Positions 4,041 through 40,101 of a DNA stretch of 64,000 nucleotides are shown piece after piece. Position 1 is the first letter of the stretch, and the number at the start of each line of letters is the position of its first letter. This DNA is from a phage. Under the pieces are notes generated by a model. That model had not been told where the DNA came from and searched no databases. It was given only the letters and a program-made list of their open reading frames with translations. The DNA lies in the sequence record PZ357121.2. The stretch is one strand, 5' to 3'. A program made the translations under genes and the position numbers.

Positions 4041-4080
4041 CAACGAGAGAATTATACTCATCTCTCAAGAGTTTGTATAC
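4041..4080 (-). promoter_or_regulatory. early-type promoter with -10 TATAAT between inverted arms GAGAGA/TCTCTC (copy 1 of a ~50-bp repeat)
   Basis: minus strand GTATACAAACTCTTGAGAGATGAGTATAATTCTCTCGTTGGATAATAAAA; second copy at 35440-35486. Confidence 0.55.
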
Positions 4081-5271: not shown

Positions 5272-5450
5272 GACTTAATTTCCTTCGCAATTGAACAGAA
5301 GATACCACGGTCACAAAGCATTTCACCAATTTCTGGATATTTGATTGAACGGTACCAAACATCCAGGTTTGAAACTTTGGTTATCTGTACTGCATTACCG
5401 TTGACAGAATAGTACTGGTCAACCTTAATTTCTTTATCTTCAATTGTCAT
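5268..5450 (-). CDS. hypothetical protein
   Basis: ORF track 5268..5612; start moved to ATG at 5450 (MTIEDKEIK), GAGGAAAA upstream, 60 aa. Confidence 0.4.
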   Translation of the reverse strand: MTIEDKEIKVDQYYSVNGNAVQITKVSNLDVWYRSIKYPEIGEMLCDRGIFCSIAKEIKS

Positions 5451-5469
5451 TTTATTTTCCTCTATAGTA

Positions 5470-5507
5470 GATGGTTTAATCTTAACACATTTATTGAGGA
5501 TGTAAAC
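5470..5507 (-). promoter_or_regulatory. canonical T4-type early promoter (GTTTAC -35, TAAGAT -10), no hairpin
   Basis: minus strand GTTTACATCCTCAATAAATGTGTTAAGATTAAACC. Confidence 0.5.
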
Positions 5508-21230: not shown

Positions 21231-21337
21231 TTTACCATACTCGTTTCAATAAGATTCACTATGCCATTTACCATGTTATAAGTAAACATCGGATAATTGT
21301 ATTGTACTACAACATAAGAGATAAGCAAAAGTTTCAT
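21227..21337 (-). CDS. hypothetical 36-aa hydrophobic peptide, first ORF after promoter
   Basis: MKLLLISYVVVQYNYPMFTYNMVNGIVNLIETSMVK; GGAG Shine-Dalgarno; stop overlaps next start (ATGA). Confidence 0.25.
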   Translation of the reverse strand: MKLLLISYVVVQYNYPMFTYNMVNGIVNLIETSMVK

Positions 21338-21356
21338 TTTGTTCTCCGTTTGTTTT

Positions 21357-21395
21357 GATAGGACTACTATAACATAGTCCTATCAAGATGTAAAC
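21357..21395 (-). promoter_or_regulatory. hairpin-embedded early promoter, family A (GTTTAC, 10-bp arms GATAGGACTA/TAGTCCTATC flanking TGTTATAG)
   Basis: minus strand GTTTACATCTTGATAGGACTATGTTATAGTAGTCCTATC; same hairpin at 31346, 32641, 39733 (arms perfect in 3 of 4 copies). Confidence 0.6.
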
Positions 21396-21604
21396 TACCG
21401 ATTGTGTTTTAAATGTTGATAAAGTTCTTCAACTTGTTTAGGGTCCAAAACAATTAAGTCATTTTCTTGACGAAGATAAATCCATCCCTTATCCCCAGGG
21501 CCATTTTTACAAAACATCACCGTCGTCATATCGTCATCTTCAGCGCTTTCAGGTAAAAGTTCAAGTACACCGTCTTCAGATTTTCCAGTATAATCGTAAA
21601 GCAT
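21395..21604 (-). CDS. hypothetical acidic protein
   Basis: ORF track 21395..21631; ATG at 21604 with GAGGA upstream gives 69 aa. Confidence 0.45.
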   Translation of the reverse strand: MLYDYTGKSEDGVLELLPESAEDDDMTTVMFCKNGPGDKGWIYLRQENDLIVLDPKQVEELYQHLKHNR

Positions 21605-21611
21605 AATATCC

Positions 21612-21791
21612 TCACATAATCTCGTTAACATACATTTGCAATTCGGTGTGGGCTTCAGCCATCTTTTTCATAGCTCTGTTAATGTCGATGTCTCCATCTT
21701 CGCAACCATGAGCATTTTCCCAATCAGATACCGCATTAGCGTACTCTTCAATCAAAAACATTAACTTTGAAATCTTTTCTTTACGCGTCAT
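21612..21791 (-). CDS. hypothetical protein
   Basis: ORF track 21612..21860; ATG at 21791 (MTRKEKISK) sits downstream of promoter and GAGGAG, 59 aa. Confidence 0.45.
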   Translation of the reverse strand: MTRKEKISKLMFLIEEYANAVSDWENAHGCEDGDIDINRAMKKMAEAHTELQMYVNEIM

Positions 21792-21797
21792 AATGTT

Positions 21798-21847
21798 CTC
21801 CTCTAGTAAGTAAGGACTACTATAACACAACCTGAGGAGAAGTAAAC
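21798..21847 (-). promoter_or_regulatory. early-type promoter inside a long hairpin whose 3' arm is the Shine-Dalgarno (CTCCTC...GAGGAG)
   Basis: minus strand GTTTACTTCTCCTCAGGTTGTGTTATAGTAGTCCTTACTTACTAGAGGAGAACATTATG. Confidence 0.5.
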
Positions 21848-21860
21848 TGATAGATGCCAA

Positions 21861-21890
21861 AAAGCCCCAACCATAAGGAAGGGGCTAGTA
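21861..21890 (-). terminator. rho-independent terminator after rI (AGCCCC...GGGGCT hairpin then T5)
   Basis: plus strand aaaaagccccaaccataaggaaggggct; same hairpin type at 36606-36634. Confidence 0.6.
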
Positions 21891-21892
21891 AA

Positions 21893-22195
21893 TTAGATAG
21901 ATGTAGGCTCTAATTTTATTTTCATGAACTCAGCAAATTGTCTGGCAGTTTTTATGCCTTGTTCATGACATTCAAATGCATCATCACAGGGGCTATTTTT
22001 GTAATGCTTTGCCATATACTTATAGAATTTTTCAGAATTCTCGACATTTTGAATTTCAAACAAAGTATATACGTTTTTAATCCCTGATTCCATAAAGTTA
22101 TCAAAATATGGGTCGATATATGCAGTACCAACGATAGGAGTTGTTGCTGCAAAAAACCCCAGCATCGCCATGACAGCTATCGCTCTTAAGGCCAT
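21893..22195 (-). CDS. rI: lysis inhibition regulator rI (antiholin-like, signal-anchor N-terminus)
   Basis: 100 aa; similarity to my recollection of T4 RI (AMLG...DPYFDNFMESGIKNVY...PCDDAFEC...FMKIKLE). Confidence 0.8.
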   Translation of the reverse strand: MALRAIAVMAMLGFFAATTPIVGTAYIDPYFDNFMESGIKNVYTLFEIQNVENSEKFYKYMAKHYKNSPCDDAFECHEQGIKTARQFAEFMKIKLEPTSI

Positions 22196-22207
22196 ATAGG
22201 CCTCCTG

Positions 22208-22420
22208 TTAATTTTGGCCAGTATTTATTTTTCGCCTTTGGACGGCCTTAACATCTGTGAGGTATTTTTCCAGCTTGCGCTTGCGTGTATAATCAGCTTT
22301 AGAACCAGTTTGACGGATATCCTCGTTTAAATGAGAAATAGAATGACCTAATTCTCTTCGGATTTCATCCAATTGGGTTACAGTAAGATTACGAAGTTGT
22401 CTTTCGTTTAATTGCTGCAT
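22208..22420 (-). CDS. hypothetical protein (rI.1 position)
   Basis: ORF track 70 aa. Confidence 0.5.
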
Positions 22421-22447
22421 ATATACCTCTTGGTTAGATATTAGTAT

Positions 22448-23029
22448 TTATAACAACCCTGTCAAATCGTTCCAATGCTTCCGGCATAATGACACATATC
22501 TATCGGTATCACCAATTTCAATTTGACTGCCATCTGTAATTGGAAGTCCGTCTTCCGTGACTCTAGCTACCATTGTGGCCTTTTTACCACAATGACAGAC
22601 ACCTTTAAGTTCAACAAGCTTATCGGCAATAGCCATTAATGCTTGAGAACCTTCAAATAGATTACCTTTAAAATCTGTTCGTAGTCCATATGCCATTACC
22701 GGCACATTGTATACGTCAACAATACGACTAAGTTGATACACCTTTTCAGTAGTTAAGAACTGAGCTTCATCAACAAATACACAGTGAATATCCTTTTGTG
22801 CTGCAGCCCATTTATAGAATTCAAAGATATCCATGTCTTTTGTAATTATATTGGCATCCTGACGAATACCAATACGAGAGACTATTTCACCTTTTGAATC
22901 ACGAGTATCAATAGCCGGTTTAAGAACTAATACACCCATGCCACGTTCTTTATAGTTATGTGCGGCAGTAAGTAATGAAGCAGACTTACCAGCGTTCATA
23001 GCGGCATATGTAAAAATTAAACTAGCCAT
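22448..23029 (-). CDS. tk: thymidine kinase
   Basis: 193 aa; P-loop AAMNAGKSASLL; zinc-binding C-terminal CHCGKKA...SLCRKH. Confidence 0.9.
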   Translation of the reverse strand: MASLIFTYAAMNAGKSASLLTAAHNYKERGMGVLVLKPAIDTRDSKGEIVSRIGIRQDANIITKDMDIFEFYKWAAAQKDIHCVFVDEAQFLTTEKVYQLSRIVDVYNVPVMAYGLRTDFKGNLFEGSQALMAIADKLVELKGVCHCGKKATMVARVTEDGLPITDGSQIEIGDTDRYVSLCRKHWNDLTGLL

Positions 23030-23037
23030 AAGAGTCC

Positions 23038-23223
23038 TTATTCGGTAATTCGTTCTAAATAATCATCCAATGCTTTTTGAGCATCTTCCAATTCTTGTGT
23101 TGCAAGTTGTTTTGCCAGTTTAGACGAGAAATACGATGAATGTTCCCATTCATAAGCTTGTTCTGCTAACCGTATTTCATTAGACAAATAAATTATTTCT
23201 TCTTTCTGTTGGCGAGTAATCAT
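23038..23223 (-). CDS. hypothetical protein
   Basis: ORF track 61 aa. Confidence 0.45.
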   Translation of the reverse strand: MITRQQKEEIIYLSNEIRLAEQAYEWEHSSYFSSKLAKQLATQELEDAQKALDDYLERITE

Positions 23224-23402
23224 AACGAATTCACATAGTTAATGAGTTCTTGCTCTTTCCTGTCAAATGATTCCATCAATGCTTGATATTCTTCGTCTGA
23301 TAACGGGGCGTATTCGTCGTATGTGGCTGTACCCGCCTGCTCATCCAAAAGGTCGTGAATGAGTTCAAATAATTTAGCTTTTTCTTCTTTAGTCAATTTC
23401 AT
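23220..23402 (-). CDS. hypothetical acidic protein
   Basis: ORF track 60 aa. Confidence 0.45.
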   Translation of the reverse strand: MKLTKEEKAKLFELIHDLLDEQAGTATYDEYAPLSDEEYQALMESFDRKEQELINYVNSL

Positions 23403-23605
23403 TTAGGTTCGCCTTCTTTAACGAAATCTGGATAAGGGCAAAATCCTGAGTAAAACCCTTCACCTTTATGATTGTTACAACCCTTGTTCGAGCAATAGCA
23501 CCAATAATCAAAATCACAAGCCATTTCGTCATTGCATAGAGCAAATACTACAGGCCATTCGCACTTTTCGCATTTAGCGCCTAGAAGAATTTTTGTTTGA
23601 CTCAT
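23399..23605 (-). CDS. hypothetical Cys-rich small protein
   Basis: ORF track 23399..23626; ATG at 23605 gives 68 aa; 12 Cys. Confidence 0.45.
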   Translation of the reverse strand: MSQTKILLGAKCEKCEWPVVFALCNDEMACDFDYWCYCSNKGCNNHKGEGFYSGFCPYPDFVKEGEPK

Positions 23606-23814
23606 AACCACGTCACCTGCATGCAATATTCTTCGACATGCTTTTTACGACCTTTCTTATCGATAAAGGTGTATTCCATAAAGCGGCCATGATAACGACG
23701 TTCAACATCATGTGGGGTATTAATAGGACACTTAGTCTGGCGAATTTCTTCCCATTCACGAATAATGACTGCTTTATTCTTCGGGTCATACGGGTGAGGA
23801 TAATGTACATTCAT
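23602..23814 (-). CDS. hypothetical protein
   Basis: ORF track 23602..23829; ATG at 23814 gives 70 aa. Confidence 0.45.
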   Translation of the reverse strand: MNVHYPHPYDPKNKAVIIREWEEIRQTKCPINTPHDVERRYHGRFMEYTFIDKKGRKKHVEEYCMQVTWL

Positions 23815-24308
23815 AACAATGGTTCCCAATCAACAATCACAATTTCTAGTTTAGTGGAATACGTATCAAGAATTTCTTCAATGATATCCCAGTTTCCACC
23901 ACCTATACCTGCACCAATTCTCGGCATATAAATCACAGGCTTTGTTATTTTATTCTTTCCGAATTCATTTAATTCTATTATACAATTCATTAAAGCATAG
24001 TACTCGAAATTAGGTCCCGGCTCAAACTGTGTATAAAGATTAAAGCAATAAGCTTTATGGGTCTTAAAATATTTTTCATAAACCGAATAAGTCCCGAGTT
24101 TAGTCTCATCACCGAATTCGGTTTGAAGTTTATCTGCTTCTAAAATTTTTGGATAAGCCTTTGCTAATTGTCCTGCTACACCGGAACCCATTGTATGAAA
24201 ACAATTACACCCATGAGCAATATTATTACCTTTAGAAAACAGGGCGACAATATCGCCCTTGATATAGTTTTTAATCACTTGCTGCAAGTCCTCTATTATA
24301 AGAGTCAA
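23811..24308 (-). CDS. macro-domain-like protein (putative ADP-ribose binding/processing)
   Basis: 165 aa; NIAHGCNCFHTMGSGVAGQL resembles the macro NAAN...GGGV motif and PVIYMPRIGAGIGGG the second glycine-rich loop; motif-level only. Confidence 0.45.
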   Translation of the reverse strand: MTLIIEDLQQVIKNYIKGDIVALFSKGNNIAHGCNCFHTMGSGVAGQLAKAYPKILEADKLQTEFGDETKLGTYSVYEKYFKTHKAYCFNLYTQFEPGPNFEYYALMNCIIELNEFGKNKITKPVIYMPRIGAGIGGGNWDIIEEILDTYSTKLEIVIVDWEPLL

Positions 24309-24618
24309 CTAGACGGTCCACCATAGAATTGCATGCTGCCTTATCTTTAGGTTCCGCCACCGAGCATTCTAATATTTGCCATTTTTTATAGTATCTTTTA
24401 ATTAAGGTAGACGCCTTGAACCTACTAGACGCCCCATCTTTTTCTCCGTCTTTATACGCATATAACAATTTTTGTGAAAAATCTACTTTACACTCTTGAC
24501 TTTTACCACAATAATCAGACGCCGTTCTGTTTGTATACTCCGTTACATCAGTATATGTAGTATTAGCAAGAGCGCTAAATGAAACCAAGCCAACTATTAA
24601 AGCCAACATTTTGGTCAT
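24271..24618 (-). CDS. hypothetical secreted protein (signal peptide, 4 Cys)
   Basis: 115 aa; N-terminal MTKMLALIVGLVSFSALA. Confidence 0.5.
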   Translation of the reverse strand: MTKMLALIVGLVSFSALANTTYTDVTEYTNRTASDYCGKSQECKVDFSQKLLYAYKDGEKDGASSRFKASTLIKRYYKKWQILECSVAEPKDKAACNSMVDRLVDSYNRGLAASD

Positions 24619-25157
24619 TCTTTTATTTCCAGTAGTTTATTTGATTTAAGGTAATTAGCCTTTTCTAGGACTTCAGAAGCATATTTACTTCCAGCACTTG
24701 TCTTCCATCCCGCATTATATGAGGATATAGCTTTTCTTATATCCCCATTATGTATATTTAACCAATAAGAAAATTCGATATAAGCCCATCTGGCTGAATT
24801 AGACCGCTTAGATAGCATTTTCTTAATTTGGGCATCAGTCATATTATAACCAAGTTGGTTAATTCTTGCCCTCATTGTTGGTAGATAATTTTGGAACATT
24901 CCATACGCATGGTGACCTTTCTTATCTTTAAGATTAATACCGGCAGATGATTCCTGCCATAGTATTGCGGCCATTATGTATCCAAGTCCTTTCTTATGCA
25001 TATTTTCATGCGTTTTAAATTTTCCGTCCTTAGAAAACTGTTCCCCAAACTGATAAGCATAATTCAAGTTATCGAGTTGGACATTACTAAAAGTATGCTC
25101 GGAGCTATGTGCTGATAATGAAAGAGCAAATAGACCAGCGAGTAGTGCTTTTCTCAT
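24615..25157 (-). CDS. secreted lytic transglycosylase-like protein (SLT domain)
   Basis: 180 aa; signal peptide MRKALLAGLFALSLSAHS; AILWQESS...AYGMFQ resembles the SLT catalytic Glu-Ser and GLMQ motifs. Confidence 0.5.
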   Translation of the reverse strand: MRKALLAGLFALSLSAHSSEHTFSNVQLDNLNYAYQFGEQFSKDGKFKTHENMHKKGLGYIMAAILWQESSAGINLKDKKGHHAYGMFQNYLPTMRARINQLGYNMTDAQIKKMLSKRSNSARWAYIEFSYWLNIHNGDIRKAISSYNAGWKTSAGSKYASEVLEKANYLKSNKLLEIKE

Positions 25158-25165
25158 GTTTACCT

Positions 25166-25624
25166 CTAGATTTTAATCACTGCTTTAGAAGCTTTTCCTG
25201 GTAGTCGTTTACTGTTAATAATAGCCATTCTGCATTGAAGAGTCTTCATTTTGAATGCTGGATTTTCGCGACAAACTGTAAGTCCTAACCAAAGATTTCC
25301 ATCAGTTATTTCTAAACGGCCTGGGCGATATTCGACACCTTCGACAAAATCTTCATCAACATCTGGACGTGCCGGCATTGATAAAAATTCTGCAACTTCT
25401 TTAACATGATTTTTTACTTTACGAAATAATTCAAAAACGTAATTCTCATCTATTTCTCTCTGGATGGCACGATCTAAGAGATGTTGAGAATACTTGATAT
25501 GAAAGCCTGGTAGTCCAAGAGACTTTGCAGCATCTTTTATACTGGCATTTATTTTGCGGAACTCCGTTTCAAAGATTCGACGGAGTTTATTGCGGCGGAT
25601 AAAAACGTCTGAATTGATAGCCAT
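25166..25624 (-). CDS. regB: endoribonuclease RegB
   Basis: 152 aa; similarity to my recollection of T4 RegB (FIRRNKLRR...YSQHLLDRAIQREID...CRMAIINS.RLPGKASKAVIK). Confidence 0.8.
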   Translation of the reverse strand: MAINSDVFIRRNKLRRIFETEFRKINASIKDAAKSLGLPGFHIKYSQHLLDRAIQREIDENYVFELFRKVKNHVKEVAEFLSMPARPDVDEDFVEGVEYRPGRLEITDGNLWLGLTVCRENPAFKMKTLQCRMAIINSKRLPGKASKAVIKI

Positions 25625-25632
25625 TTTGATTT

Positions 25633-25681
25633 CTCCTCTAGTTGACAGGTCTATAGTAACACAACTAGAGGAGAAGTAAAC
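25633..25681 (-). promoter_or_regulatory. early-type promoter inside 12-bp inverted repeat CTCCTCTAGTTG/CAACTAGAGGAG; 3' arm is the regB Shine-Dalgarno
   Basis: minus strand GTTTACTTCTCCTCTAGTTGTGTTACTATAGACCTGTCAACTAGAGGAGAAATCAAAATG. Confidence 0.55.
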
Positions 25682-25980
25682 TACTCTTTGAAAGGAATTA
25701 ACTTTTTAACTGCTTTAGATACTTCGTCACGAACCTGGTGGAAGTTCTTGAGCTGTTCAAGGCGTTGTTCGTAATACGCAATCTCATCTTCTTCAAGACA
25801 ATCGTCAGCGTCTTCTTTCAGATATGCCTTGTACTCATTAAAGAGGGCCCATAGGCGGTTCTCAAAGTCATCAAGGCTTTGAATTTTCTTGTGCTTCGGA
25901 ACAAGGCCAAAAGGATTGCTTTCAGTTATGCGTCTAGATGCTTCATAATGAGTTCCAAAGCCTGATAGGATTTGAGCCAT
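25681..25980 (-). CDS. hypothetical acidic protein
   Basis: ORF track 99 aa. Confidence 0.5.
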
Positions 25981-26246
25981 TAGTATTTTTCCTCAGGTCG
26001 AAATACTGCACGACAGGCCCACATGCTGGCTTCTTTTAGATGTTGCTTAGCATACTTAAGAGCCTGTACTGCATCCATATCTTCTTTGGTTTGTTGCTCT
26101 GTTTCATTTTCTTTCAAGATATATGCTTCTTCAATCAGAGCATCAAACAACAATCCAAGACGGACTTCTGCATCTTTAATAGCGTTCACTTTACCGATTT
26201 TATCATCGGTATGCGGCTTGTAGCCTTTGATGTCTTCAATCGACAT
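25980..26246 (-). CDS. hypothetical protein
   Basis: ORF track 25980..26414; ATG at 26246 (MSIEDIKG) with GAGGAAA upstream gives 88 aa. Confidence 0.45.
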
Positions 26247-26460
26247 AAGGAATTTCCTCATCGGTGGCAAGGTCATATTCGACCAATTGGATAGGCTCAT
26301 TAATACCATATCCACGTACAGTGATATCAGTTGTCGGATAGTTTCCAGTAATATCACCCATTCTAAATGATTCAATGAATGATTGCTCGCCTGAGCAACT
26401 AAACCAGGCGGCAAAACATTTTAAAACATCTTCAGACCCTTCTATAATCAATTTAGCCAT
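26236..26460 (-). CDS. hypothetical acidic protein
   Basis: ORF track 74 aa. Confidence 0.45.
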   Translation of the reverse strand: MAKLIIEGSEDVLKCFAAWFSCSGEQSFIESFRMGDITGNYPTTDITVRGYGINEPIQLVEYDLATDEEIPYVD

Positions 26461-26822
26461 TATAGACTCTCAGTAAAGGTGCGAGCGATAACGTCACGCT
26501 GCTGTTCCGGAGTCAGAGAGTTAAAGCGAACTGCATAACCGGATACACGGATGGTCAGCTGCGGATATTTTTCCGGATGCTTAACTGCATCTTCCAGAGT
26601 TTCACGACGCAGAACGTTAACGTTCAGATGTTGACCACCTTCAATTTTAACTTTAGGTTGATGTTCAATTTCAATTTCACGGGCATTCAAACCGTAGAAA
26701 ATTTCTGGGTCTACAATAGCGTCTTCTTTAAAAGTCTTAGAGACAATAATCCGGGCTTGAGTACCGTCTTCAAAATAAATAGTGCCTTTGTGTGTGCCTT
26801 CAAGAATTTGATATGCTTTCAT
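26460..26822 (-). CDS. autonomous glycyl radical cofactor (GrcA/YfiD-like)
   Basis: 120 aa; C-terminal half [61 protein letters not shown] matches the glycyl-radical domain (RVSGY) of E. coli GrcA as I recall it. Confidence 0.85.
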
Positions 26823-26828
26823 ATAACC

Positions 26829-27137
26829 TCAATTAGAAAATAAATTTATCCAAGTTTTTTCTTTAATCAAAAATGGGTTGGAATTAAACACCATTAAACT
26901 TTGAGTGATTAATCCCTTAAATGGCCCATCAATAAATTCCATTTTGAAATGTGGAATACTAGTCATCAACCGTGCATTAGGAGCAGTACAAAGAACCTGC
27001 TGACCTGCGAACGGACCTTTAGTCAAACGATATCGTTTAGGTTTAAAATGGTAAATCTCATAATTTTCTACAAGAGCCCTTTTATTGCATACCGGGCTAT
27101 TATAACAATATTCAAAAACTTCAATAGTGGTCATCAT
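26829..27137 (-). CDS. hypothetical protein
   Basis: ORF track 26829..27200; likely start at internal Met about 27137. Confidence 0.4.
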   Translation of the reverse strand: MMTTIEVFEYCYNSPVCNKRALVENYEIYHFKPKRYRLTKGPFAGQQVLCTAPNARLMTSIPHFKMEFIDGPFKGLITQSLMVFNSNPFLIKEKTWINLFSN

Positions 27138-27673
27138 TGCATTCCAATCACAAAAAATTGAGGACGAGCAATACCGCCGTTGCAATATTTGCTTTTGCAA
27201 CAGTGTTGGACTGTTTTAATATGTACATTGTAAATCTTATCCATATCAGGAGCTTTAATAGGCTCGTCAATTATATACAGAATACGAGAAAGCGTTAATC
27301 CACGGAATTTAGAACCTTCATTGCCAATAAAACTACGAACAGAATCAGTAAATAAACGGAATCGAATATCGTCGCTAGAATAACGAGAAAATTCTTTTTC
27401 AATGTTGCCAGCAGAAATTTTAGCATAAGCTGAAGTATTAGAAAGAACAATAACCGTTCCACCATCATACAGCCAATTAGCAGCAAAGTTAGTCACAGCA
27501 ATTGATTTACCTGATTGTCGGCCACCGTCTAAACGAAGTGTACAGTACTGCTTGAGTACGTCTTCAAACGGTGGGACATAACCGTTCTTACAAATTTCTT
27601 CTACTCTAGCATCAGAATGGTGTGTAAAAGCATTCATCAGGGATAGATAAGGTCCAGTTAAAAATGTTCTCAT
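27134..27673 (-). CDS. hypothetical P-loop NTPase
   Basis: ORF track 27134..27709; ATG at 27673 gives 179 aa; Walker A DGGRQSGKS, Walker B ILYIIDEP. Confidence 0.5.
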   Translation of the reverse strand: MRTFLTGPYLSLMNAFTHHSDARVEEICKNGYVPPFEDVLKQYCTLRLDGGRQSGKSIAVTNFAANWLYDGGTVIVLSNTSAYAKISAGNIEKEFSRYSSDDIRFRLFTDSVRSFIGNEGSKFRGLTLSRILYIIDEPIKAPDMDKIYNVHIKTVQHCCKSKYCNGGIARPQFFVIGMQ

Positions 27674-27849
27674 ATTATTTCTCTTAAGGTTTGGGCCATT
27701 CCGTGGCACATGTTAGGTCCTTCGACTCGCTATGTAAACCCATTACCGCATTGCGCTCGACCTTATTACAGGTTGGAAAAGGTACATCACTCAGAGGACT
27801 CGACGTTCATGAGGAGAGGTTGCGTTCCCCTTTATTAGACAGGAATTAT

Positions 27850-28110
27850 TTAAGCTTTACCACCAGAAACAATTCCAAAGTTATCAAAATCGTATTCAAT
27901 ATCATCAGCATCCACTTTAGGTCCCGCTACGATGTATGCGATTTCGCGGCGCTTTGCATAGGTATTGATTTCTTTACCGTCACCACCTAAGAAAGAATAT
28001 CCATTACGTTTTAATGAGCCAAAGTCTTCAGCATCACCTGCGAATGCTTTAACTTTAAATTTAGGGCCTTTAACGACTGCTTCTGTGATAAATTCTTGAT
28101 ACGTTTTCAT
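27850..28110 (-). CDS. internal head protein (IP) paralog with N-terminal capsid-targeting sequence MKTYQEFITEA
   Basis: 86 aa from ATG at 28110; N-terminus matches the conserved T4 IPI/IPII/IPIII leader. Confidence 0.6.
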   Translation of the reverse strand: MKTYQEFITEAVVKGPKFKVKAFAGDAEDFGSLKRNGYSFLGGDGKEINTYAKRREIAYIVAGPKVDADDIEYDFDNFGIVSGGKA

Positions 28111-28125
28111 TTTTATGTCCATTAG

Positions 28126-28539
28126 TTAGTAAATTGATTTGCCATAATATTTGTACCAAGACGGCCGTTGAGCAATTTTTTCATCTAAGCGTGCTTGACT
28201 TATCGCAATGGACGCTTCGGACGGGTCATAATTATTACGAAATTCGGCAGGGATGTCGGAAATATCCTGGACTGTCGTGTCCTTGATTTTGAAACCACGT
28301 TTCAAGCATTCAGCGATTAGCTCGATTTGACGTAAACGTAAAAATTCGAGTTTGTCGTAAAAGAATGTTACGTGACCTGTGCCTAAGATAAATGTTGGAG
28401 AGATTTTAAAATCCTTTACACGTTTACCGTTTTGAACATGTTTACGGACTGCACCAAATACGCGTGGTAATTCACGATACTCAGCCATAAGATGTTGGTC
28501 GGCCAGTTCAGAAACAAGTGTTAAATTGATACGGGTCAT
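28126..28539 (-). CDS. denV: endonuclease V (pyrimidine dimer DNA glycosylase) DenV
   Basis: 137 aa from ATG at 28539; very high similarity to T4 endonuclease V ([35 protein letters not shown]...). Confidence 0.9.
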
Positions 28540-28542
28540 AAT

Positions 28543-28596
28543 TTCCTCCAAGTAGTTGATGAATGTATAGTATCAAAGTCCTTGGAGGAAGTAAAC
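28543..28596 (-). promoter_or_regulatory. early-type promoter inside 10-bp inverted repeat TTCCTCCAAG/CTTGGAGGAA; 3' arm is the denV Shine-Dalgarno
   Basis: minus strand GTTTACTTCCTCCAAGGACTTTGATACTATACATTCATCAACTACTTGGAGGAAATTATG. Confidence 0.55.
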
Positions 28597-28597
28597 A

Positions 28598-28879
28598 CTA
28601 TTTTTCTGAAGCGCCTGAAATATATTTTTCAAGACGTTGTTTCATTAGCGAGCCGTTCTTAGCGATTTCTTCCGGTTTATCGCACATACGTAACAAGGCT
28701 TCAAGCTTAGCGATATCGCTGGTACGTTCAAATTTGCGAGTATCTATCTTACTAGCAAGTTCAGAAATACGTGCTAATAGACTTTCAGCTTCAACCAAAG
28801 CTGCACCTAGCTTAGTTGCAAATGTGTCAGTAGCTTCGTTAAGAATAGATTCTGATAAAAATTCACTATATGTTTTCAT
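28598..28879 (-). CDS. internal head protein (IP) paralog with leader [11 protein letters not shown]
   Basis: 93 aa from ATG at 28879. Confidence 0.55.
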
Positions 28880-29364
28880 ATATACGCTTTCCAAGTTCCT
28901 GTTTTAAATGTTGAGATTACGCGTTTCGCGCGATTAGGTGTCTGACGATACCATTTAGATTGGGCTAGATTTACTGCCGCTTCATCCCAACGTTTCTGTT
29001 GAAGCATACGAAGAGAATTAGTAAAACCGGCGACTCCTGCTACACCCATTTGGAAGACCATATTGACCAATGCACACCGACGAACTGCATCTAAAGAATC
29101 ATATACCGGTTTAAGTTTAGCATTACCCAAGATTCCGCGGACGGCTTTATCAACGTCTTCATTAAATAGCTTTTCAGCCTCATCAAGGGTAATTGTACCG
29201 TTGCATTTACGTCCGATCATTCTGTCAAGTTCAGCTTTAGCTACGGCTAAAGACGGATTCTTTGTTACTAAATGACCTATGCCAATCGTCCAAAAGCCTT
29301 CAGTGTCTTTGTATAAAGTCAGTCTAAGACCTTCGTCATTACGAAGCATTTCAAATATATTCAT
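28876..29364 (-). CDS. e: lysozyme (endolysin) e
   Basis: 162 aa from ATG at 29364 (MNIFEMLR); catalytic E11, D20, T26 conserved; roughly 80% identical to T4 lysozyme from memory. Confidence 0.9.
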
Positions 29365-29365
29365 A

Positions 29366-29400
29366 ATACCTCCCACGTTTATAGGAGGTATTTATTACTT
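29366..29400 (-). promoter_or_regulatory. lysozyme regulatory hairpin TACCTCC/GGAGGTA with late-promoter-like AATAAATA and TATAAACG; 3' arm is the Shine-Dalgarno
   Basis: minus strand AAGTAATAAATACCTCCTATAAACGTGGGAGGTATTATG; same architecture as the T4 gene e translational control. Confidence 0.55.
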
Positions 29401-29854
29401 ATAGGAGGGTAGTGAGCACCTTATATAATGATTTGCCCATTACATATTCCCATTGAGAAGGTTTAATTAAAGCGAATGCATCAAATTCAGGAATCTGTCG
29501 TCCGTCTGGGAACGTATGATAGGAATTACAAACACTGTTTCTGAATTGCTCGTGCTCTACAGGGATGGTATATAAGAACAGATGAATATTCTTATTGTCT
29601 GAGTAACGATGTTCACCTAGGTCTTTCAGGAAGGCAGGGTCATATTGTGTAAACCCAGTTTCTTCTTCGCATTCACGAATAGCGGCTTCGATAGGAGATT
29701 CACCGGGCTCGACACGGCCTTTAGGAATATCCCACCGATGAGCTAAAGAACCTTTAGGACGAGAACCAGTTACACGGCCCATGAATAACTCTTTATCTTT
29801 TGTCATGAAGATAATACCAGCTGATAGCTCTTTCACTTTATTTTTCTTACTCAT
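29399..29854 (-). CDS. nudE: Nudix hydrolase NudE
   Basis: 151 aa from ATG at 29854; Nudix box GRVEPGESPIEAAIRECEEETG. Confidence 0.8.
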   Translation of the reverse strand: MSKKNKVKELSAGIIFMTKDKELFMGRVTGSRPKGSLAHRWDIPKGRVEPGESPIEAAIRECEEETGFTQYDPAFLKDLGEHRYSDNKNIHLFLYTIPVEHEQFRNSVCNSYHTFPDGRQIPEFDAFALIKPSQWEYVMGKSLYKVLTTLL

Positions 29855-30333
29855 CATCTCAAATTCCTGCATTCGGTAATAAAATGTTCAACTTCATTAT
29901 TCTTGGCCTTTATCTTGTCTTTATGATCTTGTAAACTACTTTTAATAAGATTAATAATGATGGCGGCGGTACCGCCGCCAATGATGCCACCAACAACACT
30001 TATGATACTAGATGCTAATAAGATAGCAATAATATCAACAAAACCGAAAGAACTCACCTTAGTACTGAAAAACCATATAGACGGTACAAATATAATCCAT
30101 CCTGTTATCCATTGGCACTTATTGAAAAACCTTTCAAGCTCAGCTTGAGTTGTTCGTATTACTTCATCGATAGGTTGATATCCATTAATGTATCTGTTCA
30201 CGATAATACCTGCTGGCTGGTCGATTTTAAATTCTTGACAAATATGTTTCACTAAGTAGGATGGACAGGATGTCCAATCTACTGAATAGTATGAAATACC
30301 TTCATTGCCATCGTCTATATTATTGTTAATCAT
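29854..30333 (-). CDS. hypothetical membrane protein with C-terminal HFITECR motif
   Basis: 159 aa; TM segments; C-terminal motif shared with 31021, 33475, 34177 ORFs. Confidence 0.5.
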   Translation of the reverse strand: MINNNIDDGNEGISYYSVDWTSCPSYLVKHICQEFKIDQPAGIIVNRYINGYQPIDEVIRTTQAELERFFNKCQWITGWIIFVPSIWFFSTKVSSFGFVDIIAILLASSIISVVGGIIGGGTAAIIINLIKSSLQDHKDKIKAKNNEVEHFITECRNLR

Positions 30334-31345: not shown

Positions 31346-31384
31346 AATAGGACTACTATAACATAGTCCTATCATGTTGTAAAC
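31346..31384 (-). promoter_or_regulatory. hairpin-embedded early promoter, family A copy
   Basis: plus strand aataggactactataacatagtcctatcatgttgtaaac. Confidence 0.6.
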
Positions 31385-35439: not shown

Positions 35440-35486
35440 TATTATCCAATGAGAGCATTATACTCTGCTCTCAAGAGTTTGTAAAT
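35440..35486 (-). promoter_or_regulatory. early-type promoter with -10 between inverted arms GAGAGC/GCTCTC (copy 2 of ~50-bp repeat; compensatory change versus copy at 4041-4080)
   Basis: minus strand ATTTACAAACTCTTGAGAGCAGAGTATAATGCTCTCATTGGATAATAAA. Confidence 0.55.
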
Positions 35487-37296: not shown

Positions 37297-37372
37297 TGGT
37301 GCCTCTAGAAAGATTTGAACTCTCACCATTAACCTTAGAACGATTATATGCTATCCATTACACTATAGAGGC
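37297..37372 (-). tRNA. tRNA-Arg (anticodon UCU), CCA encoded
   Basis: hand-folded cloverleaf: acceptor GCCTCTA/TAGAGGC, D-arm GTGT-AATGGATA-GCAT, anticodon stem TAATC/GGTTA with loop GTTCTAA, T-arm GAGAG-TTCAAAT-CTTTC, then ACCA. Confidence 0.8.
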
Positions 37373-38097: not shown

Positions 38098-38169
38098 CTG
38101 GCGCACTTGGACTCGAACCAAGATAAAGGAGTTAACAGCTCCCCGTAATAACCTTTATACGATGCACCA
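38098..38169 (-). tRNA. tRNA-Asn (anticodon GUU), CCA not encoded
   Basis: hand-folded: acceptor TGGTGCA/TGCGCCA (one G-U), D-loop with GG, anticodon stem GGGAG/CTCCT with loop CTGTTAA, T-arm CTTGG-TTCGAGT-CCAAG; D-stem has one mismatch. Confidence 0.6.
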
Positions 38170-38175
38170 TTTGTT

Positions 38176-38250
38176 TGGTGACCCTGGCTGGTTTCGATCC
38201 AGCTACCTATCAGTTATGAGCTGACAGCTCTCCCATTGAGCTACAGGGCC
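38176..38250 (-). tRNA. tRNA with CAU anticodon (Met, or Ile if lysidine-modified), CCA encoded
   Basis: hand-folded: acceptor GGCCCTG/CAGGGTC, D-arm GCTC-AATGGGA-GAGC, anticodon stem GTCAG/CTGAT with loop CTCATAA, T-stem GCTGG/CCAGC with atypical loop ATCGAAA, then ACCA. Confidence 0.7.
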
Positions 38251-39725: not shown

Positions 39726-39732
39726 TTGTTTT

Positions 39733-39771
39733 GATAGGACTACTATAACATAGTCCTATCATCATGTAAAC
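39733..39771 (-). promoter_or_regulatory. hairpin-embedded early promoter, family A copy
   Basis: plus strand gataggactactataacatagtcctatcatcatgtaaac. Confidence 0.6.
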
Positions 39772-40062: not shown

Positions 40063-40101
40063 GATAGGATGATAGTAACACACCATCATCCTTATGTAAA
40101 C
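40063..40101 (-). promoter_or_regulatory. hairpin-embedded early promoter, family A architecture with different arms (GGATGAT/ATCATCC)
   Basis: plus strand gataggatgatagtaacacaccatcatccttatgtaaac. Confidence 0.5.

Follow-up and report, generated by a model that had tools for sequence, protein, structure and literature searches.

Why would an early promoter carry, within its own sequence, a segment complementary to its gene's ribosome binding site? This question is raised by regB and denV in a 64,000-nt stretch of phage DNA (sequence record PZ357121.2; the whole stretch is referred to as the window). In the initial annotation, inverted repeats enclosing the -10 element and ending in the Shine-Dalgarno (SD) sequence were noticed upstream of regB, denV and a third open reading frame (ORF), 21612-21791. 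It was proposed that RNA read through from upstream sequesters the SD, while transcripts initiated at the internal promoter keep it accessible, the logic known for T4 lysozyme. Here we found that the regB and denV hairpins are real, conserved features. We give a probability of about 60% to the reading that they act as promoter-encoded translational insulators, so that regB and denV would be translated only from their own immediate-early transcripts, a translational effect that is predicted from folding.

Between 21 and 30 kb the window is 96-97% identical to Mosigvirus genomes (RB69-type T-even phages), e.g. mobillu and ATK47. Genes were named by tblastn against T4: regB (25166-25624), with vs.3 as its upstream neighbour, denV (28126-28539), and the homologs of 55.6, 55.2 and e.6; ORF 21612-21791 is a weak match to mobD.2a. 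The minus strand carries all cassette elements and the genes of the finding (regB, denV and ORF 21612-21791). Transcription starts were throughout predicted to lie 7 nt after the -10.

An SD-pairing arm in the promoters of regB and denV

The same plan was found at regB, denV and ORF 21612-21791. Each has a T4-type early promoter (GTTTAC, N17-18, TAnnnT) whose spacer opens with 8-14 nt that are reverse-complementary to the SD region immediately 5' of the ATG. The resulting inverted repeat has its 5' arm in the spacer, the -10 in the loop and the SD as its 3' arm. In the regB cassette (25622..25681) the -35 GTTTAC (25681-25676) is followed by the 5' arm TTCTCCTCTAGTTG (25675-25662, within the 17-nt spacer), the -10 TACTAT (25658-25653), the 3' arm containing the SD, CAACTAGAGGAGAA (25644-25631), and the ATG (25624-25622). 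This perfect repeat of 14 bp ranks third among the listed short-range inverted repeats of the 64-kb window. The denV cassette (28537..28596) consists of the -35 (28596-28591), the 5' arm TTCCTCCAAG (28590-28581), the -10 (28572-28567), the 3' arm with the SD, CTTGGAGGAA (28552-28543), and the ATG (28539-28537), and its perfect core is 10 bp. The repeats around the -10 had been recognized correctly, but their lengths, given as 6 to 12 bp, were understated, the perfect cores at the three sites being 8, 10 and 14 bp.

Fold energies were compared with those of 200 shuffled sequences. As RNA, the regB hairpin reached -21.6 kcal/mol (z -4.93) and the denV hairpin -17.8 kcal/mol (z -5.20), and 0/200 shuffles folded as well in either case. 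In a separate test both promoter hexamers were kept, the spacer and discriminator were shuffled 2000 times and the energy of the arm-SD duplex was scored. None of the 2000 shuffles paired as strongly as the native regB or denV arm (p<=0.0005 each), and each arm ranked first against all non-cognate partners. Chance is excluded for regB and denV by the shuffles, the cognate-pairing test, the fold z-scores and the compensatory changes described below.

Three other interpretations of the two stems were rejected. The helices have loops of 20-24 nt and no U-run follows the stem (AAAUCAAAAUG, AUUAUG). With these long loops and no U-run, the hairpins are not intrinsic terminators, whose features (G+C-rich stem, short loop, U-run) they lack; the terminator scan flagged neither. 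An SD of the antisense strand was dismissed because GAGGAGAAG, read on the plus strand, is not followed by a start codon, and an operator for a common repressor because the arm sequences differ among genes and lineages.

For every GTTTAC promoter of the window with an SD and ATG downstream, the chance of finding the SD core unpaired was calculated for two RNAs, a read-through form that includes 60 nt of sequence from further upstream and a form starting 7 nt after the -10. This probability rose from 0.00 in read-through RNA to 0.57 in promoter-initiated RNA at denV and from 0.00 to 0.41 at regB. A comparable switch was obtained for ORF 21612-21791 (0.02 to 0.67) and for the 55.6 homolog with its -35 at 5507 (0.03 to 0.67), which makes 4 of 17-18 promoters, the other 14 (of 18) having no such switch. 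Minimum-energy folds likewise pair the SD in read-through RNA at regB and denV. The promoter-initiated leaders of 24 nt have no predicted structure (0 kcal/mol), the predicted +1 being downstream of the 5' arm. Computationally, the idea that read-through RNA would sequester the SD and internally started RNA would free it is supported at regB and denV by the folding switch, the stability, the covariation and the position of the arms; at ORF 21612-21791, where the SD has an alternative partner in longer context, the pattern is within what chance would give.

When the best SD-covering helix was searched without constraint, 25 distinct strong helices were obtained. The SD formed the 3' arm in 25/25, with the GGAG/GAGG core inside that arm in every case, and in 24 of the 25 the partner 5' arm reached no further than +2, counted from the predicted +1. 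The SD was not forced into the helix, in that other cassettes have a 3' arm upstream of the SD.

Maintenance of the pairing among T4 relatives

Loci of RegB and DenV relatives were gathered from IMG/VR and their upstream regions were read for arms. The regB arms of the window lineage, given above, are replaced by TTTTCCTCTTGACTG/CAGTTAAGAGGAGAA in the T4 type, where full pairing needs two G.U pairs (confirmed in the T4 record), by TTTCTCCTCTTTATG/CATAAAGAGGAGAAA in a third lineage and by TCTCCTGTAAG/CTTACAGGAGA in a fourth. At denV at least 8 different arm pairs were found among the lineages. The denV 5' arm is situated in the spacer in several of them, the T4 pair being TCTCCTGTAG/CTACAGGAGA. 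In other lineages it lies on the -10/discriminator and ends at about +1, e.g. GATGTCTTCC/GGAGGACATC with a U.G pair.

Duplexes between the pre-start segment and the SD segment were clearly stronger for cognate than for non-cognate combinations, with -19.3 vs -13.6 kcal/mol at regB and -15.6 vs -9.8 kcal/mol at denV (permutation p ~5e-5 for each), where the permutation is not phylogeny-aware and the independent events number about 4 for regB and 8-10 for denV. The arms of the regB leader shift by 1-2 nt among lineages and a MAFFT alignment loses the helix register; therefore the helices were registered on GGAG for pair counting. Of the 8 stem positions of regB that lie outside the SD core, 6 then had double-sided compensatory changes, as did 5/5 positions 5' of the SD among the denV leaders with a spacer arm. 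These comparisons argue strongly that the pairing at regB and denV has been kept by compensatory mutations across T4 relatives, T4 included.

In T4, an early-type promoter lies no more than 70 nt upstream of 35 genes. A strict switch criterion selected 7 of these (modB, nrdC.10, 30.8, nrdC.8, alc, denV and motB.2), and regB, alt.-3 and motA fell just short of it on the promoter-initiated side. For window and T4 together, a switch was obtained in 12/48 early-promoter cassettes, compared with 5.8 +/- 1.7 expected (maximum 10) from 40 shuffles of spacer and discriminator. We concluded that the SD-hiding device is used by a subset of early promoters and varies among lineages. A duplicated case was seen in the T4 record NC_000866.4, where alc (start 136275) and alt.-3 (start 123032), 13 kb apart, share a near-identical promoter cassette of about 50 nt (GTTTACAAGTCCCTCGTGTTGTGTTATAGTAGTCTTACT.ACATAACATGAGGA) whose spacer pairs with the SD.

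Weaker sites and other promoter hairpins

The cassette of the mobD.2a-like ORF 21612-21791 (21789..21847) is a weak case. It comprises the -35 (21847-21842), the 5' arm TTCTCCTC (21841-21834), the -10 (21824-21819) and the 3' arm with the SD, GAGGAGAA (21803-21796), each arm being 8 bp. The hairpin reached -13.2 kcal/mol with a z-score of -1.06, and 30/200 shuffles folded as well. In the spacer-shuffle test p was 0.048, and the arm ranked only third among non-cognate partners because the regB and denV spacers pair equally well with its SD. An intrinsic terminator after rI (AGCCCC...GGGGCT plus a T-run, 21859..21886, minus strand), identified by sequence and fold and kept in relatives with loop changes, immediately precedes the 21847 promoter, so that the hairpin is both less needed and less certain. 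The relatives of this ORF are all near-identical, so that covariation is uninformative either way. The hairpins at regB and denV, with z about -5 and p<=0.0005, are far beyond chance; the third hairpin named in the initial annotation is not distinguishable from chance.

A fourth SD-occluding site was found before the 55.6 homolog (5448..5507, minus strand), with the -35 at 5507-5502, the 5' arm TCCTCAATA at 5500-5492, the 3' arm TATAGAGGA at 5466-5458 and the ATG at 5450. It was recognized by its switch; fold and shuffle results were weak (z -1.09, spacer-shuffle p 0.084). One may ask whether such hairpins are a neutral by-product of C/T-rich spacers facing purine-rich SDs, mainly at ORF 21612-21791 and the 55.6 homolog. 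The figures of these two sites are in line with it, and shuffled spacers still yield about 5.8 switches per 48 cassettes. Against it, 55.6 homologs of another lineage keep the SD pairing with different arms (TCTCCTCACGTG/CACATGAGGAGA), and chance is excluded for regB and denV. For the finding as a whole this explanation has a very low probability, but for ORF 21612-21791 its probability is substantial.

A pair of repeats of about 50 bp had also been pointed out initially as near-identical save for a compensatory change in the stem, GAGAGA/TCTCTC vs GAGAGC/GCTCTC. This was confirmed, with 2 matches in the search vs 0 expected by chance. Copy 1, ACAAACTCTT, precedes the 55.2 homolog (4045..4076, minus strand), with the stem GAGAGA at 4066-4061, the -10 TATAAT at 4056-4051 and the stem TCTCTC at 4050-4045, and its fold alone is weak (z -0.95). 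Copy 2 precedes the e.6 homolog (35451..35482, minus strand), with GAGAGC at 35472-35467, TATAAT at 35462-35457 and GCTCTC at 35456-35451, and folds at -13.2 kcal/mol (z -3.62). The repeat is a promoter cassette with a 6-7-bp stem around TATAAT and the SD outside the hairpin; it is a class separate from the SD hairpins of regB and denV. RB69-type genomes carry it at three loci. The T4 motB early promoter (L118 7186-7211) is a member of the same family, with the same flanks and loop and the stem GGGACC/GGTCCC, and family members precede different genes in different phages. A scan of viral contigs with the stem left free extended the compensatory pair to 10 distinct stems, each 6/6 paired, with double-sided compensatory changes at 4/6 positions. 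The comparison of these stems points to real selection on the pairing. A single scan match in an unrelated giant-virus-type contig (L128, IMGVR GVMAG-M-3300019093-11, 2946-2971) has the exact 19-base pattern without stem complementarity and was treated as chance rather than as a family member.

Could the inverted repeats work in DNA, as a cruciform or as a palindrome bound by a factor responsible for early-promoter shut-off? Repeat and promoter do overlap, and the mechanism of early-promoter shut-off is incompletely understood (PMC3014915). The arms, however, differ among genes and lineages and offer no common recognition sequence, and a distance of 17-24 bp between them is unfavourable for cruciform extrusion. 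Among the non-Watson-Crick pairs of the motB-type stems we counted 6 G.T and 0 A.C, and the T4 regB stem needs its two G.U pairs, which fits RNA of the coding strand and not DNA. The wobble bias of the motB-type stems suggests that selection acts on RNA from the coding strand, and we regard a DNA-level element as very improbable.

A second class of promoter hairpin was observed at 7 window promoters on the minus strand, with -35 elements starting at 40101, 39771, 36141, 32679, 31384, 21395 and 17209. These hairpins lie within the next 45 nt or so of the -35 (e.g. 39732-39761), and their arms in spacer and discriminator straddle the -10, with the SD free. Four copies are near-identical (GATAGGACTA..TAGTCCTATC), two of these with G.T pairs, and one hairpin reached -18.1 kcal/mol (z -4.84). 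They would exist on read-through RNA only, and are candidates for an attenuator, a 3' stabiliser of the upstream cistron or a processing signal. In ATK47 (L098 12114-12439) a 265-bp insertion relative to the window starts exactly at the -35 of the second-class cassette at 31384. This cassette has a paralog at 21332-21385 (87% identical), which fits shuffling mediated by the PeSL elements discussed below; the other ATK47 indel junctions, at 27849/28080 and 29854-29860, are not at cassettes. With the covariance models of Rfam 15, the only window matches at the gathering threshold were three tRNA genes on the minus strand (37300-37372, 38098-38169 and 38179-38250), and none was obtained at E<=1 in 21500-29600.

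Relation to known systems and proposed role

Occlusion of the SD relieved by an internal promoter has been described for T4 e, soc, 49, I-TevI and several homing-endonuclease genes (PMC3014915); I-TevII, I-TevIII, segB and Aeh1 mobE also belong to this set. The genes under such control "are all late genes" (PMC2988022). The SD hairpin of the lysozyme gene e, described for T4 relatives (PMC3014915), is visible in the window as initially noted, at 29365..29392 on the minus strand (-16.3 kcal/mol, z -3.96, 0/200 shuffles), with late-promoter-like motifs in and around its 5' arm. The corresponding hairpin of the ATK47 record (L098 9909-9945, about 29365-29400 of the window) is annotated as "putative terminator determined with ARNold" and is probably a mis-annotated translational hairpin.

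As in the e type, the SD at regB and denV makes up the 3' arm of a helix predicted to form only on RNA started upstream, and a promoter is placed so that its own transcript, judged by the predicted start, lacks the 5' arm. Their helices (-17.8 to -21.6 kcal/mol) are at least as stable as that of e in the same window. In contrast to the e type, where both promoter and genes are late, the promoters of regB, denV and ORF 21612-21791 are of the sigma-70-type early class, and regB and denV are early genes. The late-promoter feature (TATAAATA) was found only at the e site, the three others having GTTTAC-N17/18-TAnnnT. It is the promoter's own spacer or -10/discriminator that supplies the 5' arm, and the loop has 20-24 nt instead of the 4-10 nt of the e type. 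The timing would also be reversed: expression of regB and denV is proposed to be limited to the immediate-early period, and that of e-type genes is delayed to the late one. The lysozyme comparison drawn initially is therefore apt as an analogy, for SD occlusion and an internal promoter, but these genes are not members of that late-promoter group.

By anatomy the cassettes resemble the PeSL elements (early promoter, stem-loop, SD/ATG) described in T4-type phages, including T4/PST (Arbiol et al. 2010, PMC2839356; Comeau et al. 2014, PMC4122927). Both have a strong intergenic early promoter followed by SD and ATG, and a stem-loop that lies between the -35 and -10 or overlaps them, here with the 5' arm in the spacer and the -10 in the loop. 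The T4/PST consensus TTTACW-N17-TAYWAT (PMC4122927) matches the window cassettes, which are repeated within the genome; of three indel junctions against ATK47, one is at a cassette. The stem-loop is regarded in those papers as a terminator or attenuator and as a recombination substrate (PMC2839356, PMC4122927), and "translation", "sequest" and "ribosome binding" occur nowhere in the 2010 paper (PMC2839356). The regB and denV elements differ from PeSLs as described in that the 3' arm is the SD itself, no U-tract follows, and the pairing is kept by compensatory changes.

Should regB and denV be explained in the same way, the stem-loop would attenuate or terminate upstream transcription, the cassette would be a recombination site for gene shuffling, and the SD would be involved incidentally. 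The stem-loop of an RB49 PeSL did lower reporter expression like a strong terminator (PMC2839356), but that stem was G/C-rich and unlike the regB/denV type, whose helices have long loops, no U-tract and no flag in the terminator scan. The cassettes recur in the window, those of regB and ORF 21612-21791 resemble diverged copies of each other, and the single ATK47 indel junction that is at a cassette, at 31377-31381, coincides exactly with its -35; the other two are away from cassettes. Recombination, however, needs identity between cassettes and not intramolecular complementarity, and it leaves the compensatory changes of the SD pairing unexplained, as well as the position of the partner arm upstream of the start site (24/25 ending at or before +2). 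We consider this explanation unlikely.

An arrangement with a terminator within the promoter, as in RB49-type PeSLs, was observed in jumbo-phage relatives (L039-L041 and L045, contigs of about 350 kb). There a G/C-rich hairpin with a T-run, about 60 nt upstream of denV, overlaps the -35 TTGAC (GGTTGACTTCGGTCAGCCCTTTTTTG). A similar arrangement precedes the 55.6 homolog of L115.

Hairpins also mediate translational coupling (e.g. MS2 coat/replicase), where the SD of a downstream cistron is hidden by pairing with RNA further 5' in the same molecule and ribosomes on the upstream cistron open the helix. The relief proposed for regB and denV differs from this in being a different transcription start and not translation. 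Coupling through the terminating ribosome of the upstream ORF was rejected: 6-8 nt separate the upstream stop codon from the 5' arm, and by a sequence-based estimate only the bottom few of the 10-14 pairs could be opened.

In our judgement the elements are thus of the PeSL class by anatomy and e-type-like in their working, and differ from the e type in promoter class and gene timing. The parts, PeSL cassettes and SD occlusion at late genes, are known; what is new is the early-promoter version that occludes the SD, with its predicted translational effect. No explicit earlier description of SD masking at early genes was found in the literature searched, which excludes Miller et al. 2003 and Valerie et al. 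1986, and the early-promoter version is absent from the T4 reviews examined. The denV stem-loop structure may have been seen long ago, even if its logic was unstated; the 1986 abstract is said to mention potential stem-loops before ipIII, ipII, denV and tk.2.

For translational insulation we propose the following steps. Polymerase from an upstream promoter would copy the whole cassette, in extended early transcripts and any middle transcripts. In this read-through RNA, whose existence and amount we infer, the spacer-encoded segment (in some lineages the segment encoded by the -10/discriminator) would pair with the SD 20-30 nt downstream, and a helix of 10-15 bp would block 30S binding, leaving regB and denV untranslated. 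RNA from the gene's own promoter would begin downstream of the 5' arm with an unstructured leader of about 24 nt, and would be translated. The net effect would be to tie translation to the gene's own immediate-early promoter, insulated from upstream transcription and confined to the short period in which early promoters are active. Several points make read-through plausible: the -35 directly adjoins the stop codon of the upstream gene, terminator-like sites between the denV promoter and regB are only weak and none is intergenic, and it is accepted for T4 that early transcripts are extended (PMC2988021). The regB promoter is off at 2-3 min and RegB production is tightly regulated (PMC3014915).

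RNA secondary structure shields GGAG from the RegB nuclease (PMC3014915), and a likely secondary effect of the pairing would be to hide the GGAG of read-through RNA from it. The hairpin might even serve mainly this end, hiding intergenic GGAG from RegB or other RNases so that downstream cistrons survive, with the translation block as a side effect. RegB cuts the SD GGAG in early mRNAs, its own mRNA included, and structure protects (PMC3014915); for 16 T4 RNAs that resist RegB, stable structures containing the GGAG are possible (PMC1702504), and the core sits in the 3' arm of every strong helix. On the other hand, this leaves the exposure in promoter-initiated RNA unexplained, and the resistance of the T4 denV GGAG was ascribed to its 3' flanking sequence and not to structure (PMC1702504). 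The 3' context of the window regB (GGAGAAAUCAA) is also, by our own reading of PMC1702504, a poor fit to the RegB/S1 consensus GGAGRAYARAA. RNA protection as the main function appears rather improbable to us, and it is compatible with translational insulation rather than an alternative to it. In the regB segment itself (25631-25640, minus strand), A at position 7, U at 8 and C at 9 depart from the consensus, to which the T4 regB SD (GGAGAAUAACA) fits well; from these sequences, RegB self-cleavage may differ in RB69-type phages.

Several observations weigh against translational insulation. One regB lineage (L013/L014) has no SD pairing, and a hairpin straddling the -10 is present in its place. 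The architecture is variable among lineages: T4 55.6 is without it, and the nrdC.8 homolog of the window is without what T4 nrdC.8 has. In the read-through RNA of ORF 21612-21791 with longer context, the minimum-energy fold gives the SD another partner. Internal mismatches at the SD helices, 4 G.T vs 2 A.C, are uninformative on whether selection acts on RNA or on DNA. The 5' arms that overlap the -10/discriminator end at -2 to +1 and are sensitive to a small shift of the start site. The enrichment of the switch is only about 2-fold, from 40 shuffles. A temporal gain is less obvious for genes that are already early than for lysozyme. Finally, once their RegB site is improved, denV transcripts of T4 undergo efficient cleavage in vivo (PMC1702504), thus much early denV RNA has an exposed GGAG; this fits dominant promoter-initiated RNA, and read-through RNA may be minor.

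More tentatively, we suggest a portable device that moves with the promoter cassette and is present in about 1/4 of early-promoter cassettes (including, in T4, regB, denV, alc, modB and motB.2), keeping the gene silent on delayed-early or middle read-through RNA and its GGAG hidden from RegB. T4 regB and denV have the same architecture, and the proposal is directly testable in T4. This phage is the reference for phage gene timing, and its many closely spaced early promoters are only partly explained, as is the separation of immediate-early protein synthesis from what is expressed on extended transcripts. If true, the mechanism would be a promoter-encoded separation of immediate-early from delayed-early protein synthesis, and would contradict the generalisation that SD-occlusion control in T4 is confined to late genes. 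The output of each gene would depend on the short firing window of its own promoter, which would suit the RNase RegB, endonuclease V, Alc and ModB. The mechanism would account, too, for some of the additional sequence conservation of T4 early promoters that has had no explanation (PMC2988021), and PeSL cassettes would gain a post-transcriptional function beyond their roles as terminators and in recombination.

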